Positions 49,212-50,470 of a stretch of DNA of 64,000 nucleotides are shown piece by piece (the stretch's first letter is position 1; every line of letters begins with the position of its first letter). Both the position numbers and the translations under genes were made by a program. The DNA comes from Pirellulales bacterium. GTDB taxonomy: Bacteria; Planctomycetota; Planctomycetia; Pirellulales; PNKZ01. The stretch covers positions 87,085 to 151,084 of the forward strand of contig DATAXP010000075.1 in the NCBI GenBank assembly GCA_036272935.1, given 5' to 3'. Under the pieces are notes generated by a model. The model searched no databases. It saw only the letters and a program-made list of their open reading frames with translations, and was not told the origin of the DNA.

Positions 49212-49586
49212 TTACGCGACGCCGTCACGGAAAACCGAGCCGCGTTTTTCAGCGACGACTCGAAGCGCCTTGCTTTTCTTCTCGACTTTGTCCTGAAACG
49301 CACTGAAATCCACGACGGCGTGTTCTGGGAAATCGGTGAGGTCAGATCGCGTCGGTAGCGATTCGTTGAGGCACTCGCCTACGGTAACGGCCATTACTCC
49401 AACCGAGAGATACTCCAGCCTGGTTGTGTAGTGCGTCCAAGAATCTCGGGCTGAAATCAAATCACCGTCGTAAACAGAGAGCAGAAAGTTATCCTTTGGC
49501 ATGGGACGAAACGCCTGCGACGTTACTCGCCCGGATTGAACGAACGAGGGATGAACCTGTCGATAGAGCATCGTCGAATCGGTCAT
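49212..49586 (-). CDS. Hypothetical 124-aa protein, second gene of a low-GC two-gene module, translationally coupled to the gene upstream
   Basis: The track ORF (49212..49637) starts at an upstream Met. The in-frame ATG at 49584-49586 overlaps the stop of the upstream gene as ATGA, so I use it (MTDSTMLYRQVHPSFVQSGRVTSQAFRP…). No family assignable. Local GC is about 50%, against about 67% in the flanks. Confidence 0.5.
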   Translation of the reverse strand: MTDSTMLYRQVHPSFVQSGRVTSQAFRPMPKDNFLLSVYDGDLISARDSWTHYTTRLEYLSVGVMAVTVGECLNESLPTRSDLTDFPEHAVVDFSAFQDKVEKKSKALRVVAEKRGSVFRDGVA

Positions 49587-50470
49587 ATCGCTAGGGCCCC
49601 GGCAGCGGTGCGTATCTGCTTGCCCAACCATGCCCATTCGTTTGCATCGTCAAGCGACAACTTGCGGACGTCTTCGGTGTCGCTGCCGACCGCCCAGGAG
49701 TGCCAAATAGCGGAGTGGTCGCTCAGGTTGATGTCTAAGGAAATCTCATGGCCGCTAATCGACCATTCGGCGCGCACTCCTCCGTCAATCGTCGGAAAGA
49801 TGTACGGCAAATGCTGATCGAGGTCGAAATAGCTCTCGAATGCTGCCGCAAGCCAATCTAGACCGGTTGTAGGTGGTGCTTTTCCAGTACCCTCGAACCA
49901 GCCGTTTTTCAGGACTTTGAGTTCGTCCAATCGCGCCGCCGTGTCAAGTTCCTCTAGAACGGTGACGTTCTCAACTGAGTCGATCGAATGGAGGCGTTCG
50001 GCTCTATCCACCTTTGCTATGCCTTGCACGCGAACGCGAGTTCCGTGCGGATATTCATTGAATGCCTTGACGATCTCCTCTCTGTGTTCACCAATTGGAG
50101 CGATGATCTTTCTGCTATCGGCCAATTGGATTTGGAACGTCCCTCGATCCTGATCCGCTTCGGGGACCGTGCCAAAGAGCACTACATTTTCAGTGAACAA
50201 AGTTGCGCTCGTGGCTGCAAGCACCAGTTTGCGACGGGTCTCTTTTGTCAGGCGCGCGGGACTATCTTGCTTTGAAGTTGCGAACTCAATTGCTTCGCCG
50301 TCGCGAAGGCTTCGACCGAATTTATCAAAATACCAATGGATGTTTTCCGGAAGATACTGCGAGATCGGCTTATTTGACTGTGCAGCGTCAATCGCATCAA
50401 TGATCGCATCCCGCGCTTCTTCGAGATATGGTTGGCTTGGCGACAAGAGAAGGTTCGCCCCAACCACCAA
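49583..50470 (-). CDS. Hypothetical 295-aa protein, first gene of the low-GC two-gene module
   Basis: No internal Met, so the start is TTG or GTG at about 50470. No recognisable motifs (…KVDRAERLHSIDSVENVTVLEELD…). Its stop overlaps the start of the 124-aa gene. A stem-loop (gggtttcggaatcgaaaccc, about 49176-49199) follows the pair. Confidence 0.5.
   Translation of the reverse strand: MVVGANLLLSPSQPYLEEARDAIIDAIDAAQSNKPISQYLPENIHWYFDKFGRSLRDGEAIEFATSKQDSPARLTKETRRKLVLAATSATLFTENVVLFGTVPEADQDRGTFQIQLADSRKIIAPIGEHREEIVKAFNEYPHGTRVRVQGIAKVDRAERLHSIDSVENVTVLEELDTAARLDELKVLKNGWFEGTGKAPPTTGLDWLAAAFESYFDLDQHLPYIFPTIDGGVRAEWSISGHEISLDINLSDHSAIWHSWAVGSDTEDVRKLSLDDANEWAWLGKQIRTAAGALAI

Follow-up and report, generated by a model that had tools for sequence, protein, structure and literature searches.

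A frameshifted copy of the phage defence candidate PDC-M32 in a Pirellulales bacterium and a proposed toxin-antitoxin-like mechanism for the family

What is encoded by a short stretch of low-GC DNA, carrying two overlapping genes, that lies between uvrA and icd in the genome of a Pirellulales bacterium? The locus is part of assembly GCA_036272935.1 (contig DATAXP010000075.1, positions 87,085 to 151,084), and the whole stretch of 64,000 nucleotides that was analysed is referred to here as the window. A preliminary description of the window had reported two minus-strand open reading frames (ORFs) of 295 and 124 amino acids (aa) that overlap as ATGA, the first of them with no internal Met, together with a further ORF upstream at 50397..50708; all of these are present. 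It had regarded the pair as being of the toxin-antitoxin (TA) or small-defence-system kind and as possibly undescribed. Our analysis of the two genes, named A and B below, identified the insert by profile matches as a copy of the two-gene cassette that PADLOC catalogues as the phage defence candidate (PDC) PDC-M32, with gene A split by a frameshift. The overall explanation that we favour, and consider moderately probable, is that of a horizontally acquired PDC-M32 cassette working as a TA-like abortive-infection module.

The identity of the pair was determined by comparison with PADLOC-DB v2. The 295-aa ORF matched PDC-M32A (PDLC04574) with an E value of 3.5e-95 over profile positions 87-371 of 376, and the 124-aa ORF matched PDC-M32B (PDLC04579) with an E value of 5.3e-48 over profile positions 1-121 of 123, so the pair cannot be counted as an undescribed system. 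PHROGs likewise contains both families, with no function attached. The earlier remark that the two genes have no recognisable family holds for Pfam and NCBIfam, in which none of the three ORFs gave a match at E ≤ 1, and fails for PADLOC-DB and PHROGs. Pfam searches across 45 A homologues yielded scattered chance matches only, and sequence-profile searches of the PDB with A and B gave nothing meaningful, the top matches being a retroviral capsid (E 0.3) and a helicase (E 0.4); neither protein matches a metabolic family. PDC-M32 is one of 145 PDCs that were derived from uncharacterised cassettes embedded in BREX, DISARM or type I restriction-modification (RM) systems and added to PADLOC, and it corresponds to cassette CAS_00128, FAM_01821>>FAM_00608, with a count of 98 (Payne et al. 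2024, 10.1101/2024.01.29.577857). The accessible part of that catalogue gives no functional annotation, fold or mechanism for PDC-M32, and in the literature that we searched, the one further paper to mention it does so for a Sinorhizobium prophage in which PADLOC detected it. The family is thus on record, yet has no function or mechanism assigned. At the locus studied here, the proteins match both hidden Markov models and the A>>B order is kept, with A directly upstream of B on the same strand and the ATGA overlap between them. The copy differs from the catalogued cassette of two intact genes in that A is split at position 50522 and in that the pair is solitary and not embedded. The locus is a new, damaged member of a family already catalogued, and what is new here is the assignment of an ADP-ribosyltransferase (ART) fold to B, the architecture of A with an OB-fold and a C-terminal domain, and the existence of short-A variants.

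Analysis of the reading frames revealed two genes at the locus, one of them frameshifted, and not three. Gene A (PDC-M32A) begins on the minus strand at the ATG at 50708, and its codons 1-62 (50523..50708) match positions 5-63 of the PADLOC PDC-M32A profile at E 3e-23. These codons open the 103-aa ORF (50397..50708, minus strand, ATG start), which lies in a frame different from that of the 295-aa ORF, runs out of the gene A frame past codon 62, and aligns with the N-termini of homologues of 373-376 aa. Codons 63-374 and the stop codon occupy 49583..50521 on the same strand, where the mechanically called ORF (49583..50470) has a TTG start, 295 codons and no in-frame Met. Because the 295-aa and 103-aa ORFs both match the PDC-M32A profile, sequence comparison identifies them as the two parts into which a +1 frameshift has divided one gene, and the supposed third small gene upstream turns out to be the N-terminal 62 codons of gene A. 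The frameshift site is one surplus A at 50522 on the minus strand (GGC GTG [A] TCG CTG AAG). Homologues read ...PRNFLAGV-SLKLTGIDDGSAKPVISL... in one frame, and the window reads ...PRNFFGGV, followed by the surplus A and then by SLKLTGIEDGSARPIISL...; the closest intact homologue (L001, from a Planctomycetota metagenome-assembled genome [MAG], with 70% identity in B) has an unbroken ..AGV SLKLTG.., and the window gives ..GGV SLKLTGIEDGSA.. only after one base is dropped. Without the surplus base, gene A encodes a protein of 374 aa.

The frameshift at 50522 is most likely real, because the surplus base is repeated in a Logan contig and its context, GTGATCG, contains no homopolymer. This contig, from the assembly of run SRR11836411, is identical to the window (100% over 1,851 bases, surplus base included), and its reads may be those of the MAG. 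Among the matches listed, A homologues measure ~372-397 aa, and the lone exception of 294 aa comes from this same Logan assembly. Programmed frameshifting was considered and rejected, since the site has no slippery heptamer and no 0-frame stop, and the other A homologues listed read in one frame. Ribosomes starting at the ATG at 50708 would end at 50397, and the downstream A frame could be started at TTG or GTG only. By its sequence, the locus cannot yield full-length A; the translational coupling of B to A is probably lost through the frameshift, and gene A is probably inactivated in this genome. Gene B (PDC-M32B, 49212..49586, minus strand) is predicted to encode a minimal ART-fold protein of 124 aa from its ATG, and its start overlaps the A stop at 49583-49586. 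In the public annotation of the MAG, B (VHZ24_12070) has 119 aa and starts at the second Met (Met6; the first five codons are 49572..49586 of the window). We favour the upstream ATG because the first five residues are conserved in homologues, which share the N-terminus MTxxTLLxRQ.

The origin of the pair was examined through its composition and location. The low-GC, low-GC3 (GC at third codon positions) insert spans 49100..50881, holds genes A and B as its sole content, and lies between the start of uvrA (49059, minus strand) and the start of icd (50882, plus strand). In 300-nt windows, GC from ~49100 to ~50900 is 0.51-0.57, compared with 0.62-0.70 on either flank. Most of this drop is borne by third codon positions, with GC3 of 0.58 and 0.61 in the two insert genes versus 0.78-0.88 in the host genes called in the window. 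The dip described earlier is thus real and codon usage is not uniform; the low GC3 of A and B points to foreign composition rather than noise. The placement between a UvrA-like gene and icd was also correct, the flanking genes being a 2,356-aa tandem-UvrA fusion, Iso_dh (icd, an isocitrate/isopropylmalate-type dehydrogenase) and LpxK. Comparison with 80 related icd loci from metagenomes (icd identity 63-81%) revealed that A and B are absent from all 80, which is consistent with recent acquisition. Taken with the GC3 of ~0.6 against ~0.8 in the host, this absence identifies the insert, at the level of sequence, as horizontally acquired DNA. In none of the 80 loci does uvrA precede icd, and their relation to the window is therefore too remote for locating the insertion boundaries. 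The sole candidate for an att site or target duplication, an 11-nt exact repeat GATTACCGGCG at 49117 and 50899, has its second copy within the icd coding sequence and was rejected because ~0.7 such pairs are estimated by chance in 2.4 kb.

To what extent A and B belong together was assessed in 80 fetched B loci from other genomes. In every one of them, B is immediately preceded by an A-type ORF of the same orientation, and in 67 the overlap of the A stop with the B start measures exactly 4 nt. The genes are adjacent, co-directional, small and overlapping, which is the generic layout of type II TA systems, and the pair does stay together elsewhere. Two architectures of A were found. Full-length A is present in ~60 of the 80 loci, and ~20 keep the C-terminal domain of A alone (profile positions ~250-374; ~120-230 aa). 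The short-A loci, in which this domain is encoded upstream of B (B at ~8001 in full-flank loci), are L006, L007, L011, L012, L016, L021, L025, L028, L035-L037, L051, L052, L059-L061, L073, L077, L078 and L080. In some of the short forms, the domain is preceded by an unrelated N-terminus. This N-terminus is AF2212-like (an antitoxin family) in L028 (E 6e-7), and that of L037, which was not scanned, is very similar in sequence; L059 has TPR/PPR-like repeats at this position. In L080 (7548-8378), the A C-terminal domain and B occupy one 277-codon open frame with no stop between them, a possible natural fusion judging from the reading frame, and a single case. The gene upstream of B always holds at least the A C-terminal domain, and the short-A loci retain this domain alone; it therefore appears to be the constant partner of B, and the N-terminal domain and OB-fold an optional module.

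The distribution of the family was analysed in species-representative genomes (one genome per species), of which 397 of 185,579 carry B relatives. They belong to Planctomycetota, Pseudomonadota, Chloroflexota, Acidobacteriota, Verrucomicrobiota, Bacteroidota, Nitrospinota and Gemmatimonadota, with one Paceibacterota. The Pfam assignments of 93 neighbouring proteins from 16 loci comprised N6_Mtase (8), HsdM_N (7), HSDR_N, ResIII, T1R_D3 and SWI2_SNF2 (4 each), Methylase_S (3), AAA_21 and Schlafen/AlbA_2 (2 each) and McrBC (1). A seeded phmmer search detected at least one Hsd gene in 32 of the 80 loci, and about 19 show the co-directional order hsdM-A-B-hsdS-(x)-hsdR. Hsd-linked loci account for 32 of the 60 with full-length A versus 0 of the 20 with short A (Fisher p = 8e-6, phylogeny uncorrected). 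It is thus common for the full-length PDC-M32 form to lie inside a type I RM operon, with hsdM on one side and hsdS/hsdR on the other, and the embedding that defined the candidate of Payne et al. is reproduced by our survey. A search for a defence-island context, which had been suggested earlier, is therefore positive for the family and negative for the window.

These two data sets bear on a first rival explanation, in which the pair is an ordinary type II TA addiction module, serving to stabilise mobile DNA or islands and not specifically to defend against phages. The compact two-gene layout with the putative antitoxin first and the 4-nt overlap would suit such a module, and the short-A variants of ~120-160 aa, one with an AF2212-like N-terminus and none near RM genes, look like classical TA pairs. 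Further points in its favour are that the pair shares the L003 island with genes for an integrase, a resolvase, a Dcm methylase and Vsr; that a plasmid search for B gave 4 matches, all weak; that B is present on 11 IMG/VR contigs; and that the window pair stands alone amid housekeeping genes. A tblastn search of a phage genome collection found no B homologue. However, an addiction role alone does not explain why 32 of the 80 loci, all with full-length A, lie next to or inside type I RM operons in a co-directional manner, and simple neutralisation would not call for the 250 additional residues, OB-fold among them, of full-length A. In addition, TA and abortive-infection roles can coexist. We consider the purely addictive explanation unlikely. 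As a separate observation, the gene for a TIR_2-domain protein follows B in L001 (6471-7469, the same region as L005), ~100 nt away and in the same orientation.

To elucidate what B might do, we analysed a structural model built with a 46-sequence alignment (predicted local distance difference test score [pLDDT] of 94.9). The model shows a minimal ART fold with the split beta-sheet typical of this fold, and B is accordingly predicted to have an ART fold of the toxin type. Its closest structural match is the RNA 2'-phosphotransferase Tpt1/KptA and the second is Tse2; DarT (chains of 208-221 residues) was also matched. Among 266 homologues, R9 (98%), S37 (99%), H89 (97%), G63 and P28 show the highest conservation in B; E88 is conserved in 70% and replaced otherwise by G, A or S. 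According to the predicted secondary structure (no superposition), R9 lies on strand 1, S37 on strand 2 with a helix after it, and H89 together with E88 at the start of strand 5. ART triads consist of R or H, S or Y, and E, on strands 1, 2 and 5, respectively. B is nearly always a stand-alone protein of ~125 aa, with no convincing fusions among the best 150 of 1,305 clusters (50% identity, E ≤ 1e-3). Fusions of B to polymorphic-toxin or secretion domains were not seen in this set, in which the longer representatives resemble mis-called starts or low-complexity tails.

The architecture of A was derived from the model of a homologue, P0123 (pLDDT 88). The model consists of an N-terminal alpha/beta region (residues 1-82), helices, a five-stranded barrel (~172-253) with a helix between strands 3 and 4, and a C-terminal alpha/beta region (~259-372), so that in the usual product of gene A, of ~375 aa, a helical linker would join the N-terminal domain to an OB-fold barrel, after which comes the C-terminal alpha/beta domain of ~120 aa. 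The structural matches of A are OB-folds, namely those of SilF, RPA, YgiW, PriB, SSB, IF1 and the N-terminal domain of LysRS, and the model thus indicates that A contains an OB-fold. Transferred from P0123 to the window, and hence approximate, the OB-fold lies at ~49955..50200 and the C-terminal, B-partner domain at ~49586..49939, both on the minus strand. A relation to PUR/MRP (Whirly-like) proteins was rejected since the Foldseek matches were weak and unreliable. When the N-terminal 254 residues of an A homologue were used to look for the same sensor module on other effectors, the best 120 matches were all ordinary full-length A.

The two predicted folds allow a second rival explanation, in which the pair is a two-subunit nucleic-acid-modifying enzyme: the OB-fold of A would bring B to single-stranded DNA (ssDNA), RNA or RNA ends, and B would modify them in the manner of Tpt1 or DarT, as an accessory to type I RM or to nucleic-acid repair. 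The top structural match of B to Tpt1/KptA, its further match to DarT, an ART acting on ssDNA, and the lack of a conserved Glu of the kind typical of protein-targeting ARTs are in line with such an enzyme, as are the resemblance of the OB-fold of A to those of SSB, RPA, PriB and IF1 and the weak PUR/MRP-like matches. However, the short-A variants keep B without any OB-fold, suggesting that the OB-fold is dispensable for the core relationship between A and B. B also lacks the RNA-binding lobe of Tpt1 and has no Pfam match to Tpt1 or DarT, and the patchy, horizontally transferred and RM-embedded distribution suits conflict systems better than repair. We regard the two-subunit enzyme as very unlikely.

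We therefore return to the TA-like abortive-infection module. The earlier impression of a toxin-antitoxin or small-defence-system kind fits the ART fold of B, the constant linkage, the frequent 4-nt overlap and the type I RM embedding. In the mechanism that we propose, B would be a NAD+-using toxin that most likely ADP-ribosylates nucleic acid or a translation component, with NAD+ consumption alone also possible. The C-terminal domain of A would bind B and keep it inactive. The OB-fold and the N-terminal part of A may act as a sensor of single-stranded nucleic acid or of a phage protein, and sensing during infection would free B. In the RM-embedded copies, the sensor of A may read the state of the RM complex instead, as with PrrC. 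The solitary Pirellulales copy is probably attenuated or decaying. A product of its 295-codon frame would lack ~80 N-terminal residues and keep the OB-fold and the C-terminal domain, which under the model would hold B harmless and so explain why an intact B is tolerated.

Several observations weigh against this mechanism. The literature that we searched contains no experiment on any PDC-M32 member, and PDCs are described as untested by their authors (Payne et al., 10.1101/2024.01.29.577857). A physical interaction between A and B is suggested by gene linkage alone. E88, which would take the place of the canonical catalytic Glu of ARTs, is kept in just 70% of homologues, which makes R-S-E chemistry of the canonical kind doubtful for B, and its second structural match, Tse2, is to our knowledge an ART-fold toxin for which no use of NAD+ has been demonstrated. 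A Foldseek search of the A model against the PDB gave nothing at E ≤ 1e-3, with the N- and C-terminal domains lacking a significant match. A also differs from the antitoxins that accompany known nucleic-acid ARTs in that it shows no hydrolase signature of the macrodomain, ARH or NADAR kind, and none of the 45 A homologues has a macrodomain match in Pfam. There are no defence genes beside the pair in the window, its neighbours being housekeeping genes. The copy itself may be dead, given the frameshift; among the 109 columns with a conservation of 90% or more, A after correction of the frameshift departs from the consensus at 12 (reference mean 5.3, maximum 14), three of these 12 being otherwise invariant, and for B the figure is 3 of 42, with W117S (W in 86% of homologues) as one of the three.

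The last of these observations raise a further alternative, confined to this genome, in which the cassette is a non-functional, pseudogenised remnant of horizontal acquisition. It is a serious possibility, one that we come close to accepting without quite favouring it. The 1-nt insertion that splits A past codon 62 is repeated in a second assembly, the remaining A frame has no ATG and could start only at TTG or GTG, the coupling of B to A should break, and the deviating columns of A and W117S of B add to this picture. A split A also occurs in another genome: in L032 (6881-7937, a Phycisphaerales MAG), full-length A, here within a type I RM operon, is divided into two frames, with the break where the OB-fold meets the C-terminal domain (profile position 257). 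On the other hand, B retains R9, S37, E88 and H89 as well as every one of the 20 invariant columns of the 46-sequence alignment, and with 3 deviations it does not exceed the reference range. The downstream frame of A, 312 codons long, has also stayed open, as would not be expected after long decay. The signs of decay at the locus are mild. A remnant of this kind would concern a single locus and is compatible with the TA-like abortive-infection module as the explanation for the family; in this genome, the cassette is probably attenuated or non-functional.

Several further features of the window were recorded. The perfect 8-bp stem-loop that had been described after the second gene is present at 49178..49197 (minus strand), where the coding strand reads GGGTTTCG-ATTC-CGAAACCC, 14 nt past the B stop. 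The surrounding 56 nt (49160..49215) fold with -23.9 kcal/mol and a minimum free energy z-score of -2.1, and 4 of 200 shuffles fold equally well. A terminator scan did not place the hairpin among canonical terminators, and a canonical intrinsic terminator was rejected owing to the missing U-tract and a z-score of just -2.1; a role as terminator or stabiliser is possible but unproven. The uvrA gene (41989..49059, minus strand) encodes two complete UvrA units in tandem, with UvrA_inter and UvrA_DNA-bind each present twice, and the C-terminus of the 2,356-aa fusion carries an extension of several hundred residues with no family match. A second low-GC pair lies at 34198..35006 on the minus strand and consists of a 98-aa gene (34710..35006, GC3 0.56) followed by a 171-aa gene (34198..34713, GC3 0.65) with a 4-nt overlap; the bordering genes have GC3 of 0.83-0.85. 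This pair has no Pfam, NCBIfam or PADLOC match and may be another horizontally acquired TA-like or defence-like module. A third low-GC pair is located near the window end at 63186..63992 (minus strand), with a 92-aa gene (63714..63992, GC 0.54) followed by a 174-aa gene (63186..63710, GC 0.48); it has no Pfam or NCBIfam match, and its PADLOC match to GajB at E 0.006 is at chance level.

Comparison with known systems places PDC-M32 nearest to DarTG as a functional precedent. The ART DarT acts on ssDNA as its substrate. DarTG2, an ART TA pair, gives phage defence and is embedded in a type I RM system in enteropathogenic Escherichia coli (PMC12255303). PDC-M32 differs from it in several respects. 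B has 124 aa, compared with 208-221 residues in the DarT chains, and shows no sequence relation and no Pfam match to DarT; the gene order is partner and then ART; A has an OB-fold in place of the macrodomain of DarG; the conserved residue on strand 5 of B is His and not Glu; and the embedding is between hsdM and hsdS, whereas that of DarTG2 is between hsdS and hsdR. Tpt1 has two lobes, with a separate RNA-binding lobe and catalytic Arg and His residues; in contrast to Tpt1/KptA, B is a single-domain protein, has no Pfam Tpt1 match and occurs in a conflict-system context. Tsi2 is a small helical protein. For Tse2-Tsi2, the type VI secretion toxin and immunity pair of Pseudomonas aeruginosa, no sequence-level relation was found, A is unlike Tsi2, and no type VI genes were seen beside PDC-M32 loci. 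The NAD+-dependent TA systems RES-Xre, ParST and MbcTA differ in that B has no RES Pfam match and a conserved order of R..S..H/E rather than R..E..S, and in that A is neither Xre-type nor DUF2384. PDC-M32 resembles the anticodon nucleases PrrC/RloC in that a suicide effector has been inserted into a type I RM operon, between its hsd genes, and PrrC is named as the archetype, occurring almost exclusively inside type I RM (Payne et al., 10.1101/2024.01.29.577857). The chemistry of these nucleases is different, being that of an ABC-ATPase-regulated tRNA nuclease; PrrC is a single gene, and about half of the PDC-M32 loci are not embedded. A more far-reaching proposal combines these features: PDC-M32B would found a new minimal, ~125-aa ART clade with an R-S-H active site, not R-S-E or H-Y-E, that ADP-ribosylates nucleic acid, and full-length A would be an OB-fold guardian that grips B via its C-terminal domain and frees it upon contact with phage ssDNA or RNA or, in RM-embedded copies, upon anti-restriction inactivation of type I RM, as a PrrC-like back-up layer with other chemistry. 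We hold this proposal in full to be distinctly unlikely.

For annotation, the locus should be described as a frameshifted PDC-M32 cassette and neither as three hypothetical genes nor as a novel system. The main value of the analysis lies in a testable mechanism for PDC-M32, a widespread family with no function assigned, and not in the window copy itself. In this mechanism, B would be a minimal ART-fold effector and the C-terminal domain of A its constant partner, and the optional OB-fold module is, in our sample, confined to the A form found embedded in type I RM operons. If this is true, PDC-M32 would join DarTG2 as the second case in which an ART-type toxin system is linked to type I RM, with conserved residues unlike the canonical ART triads.

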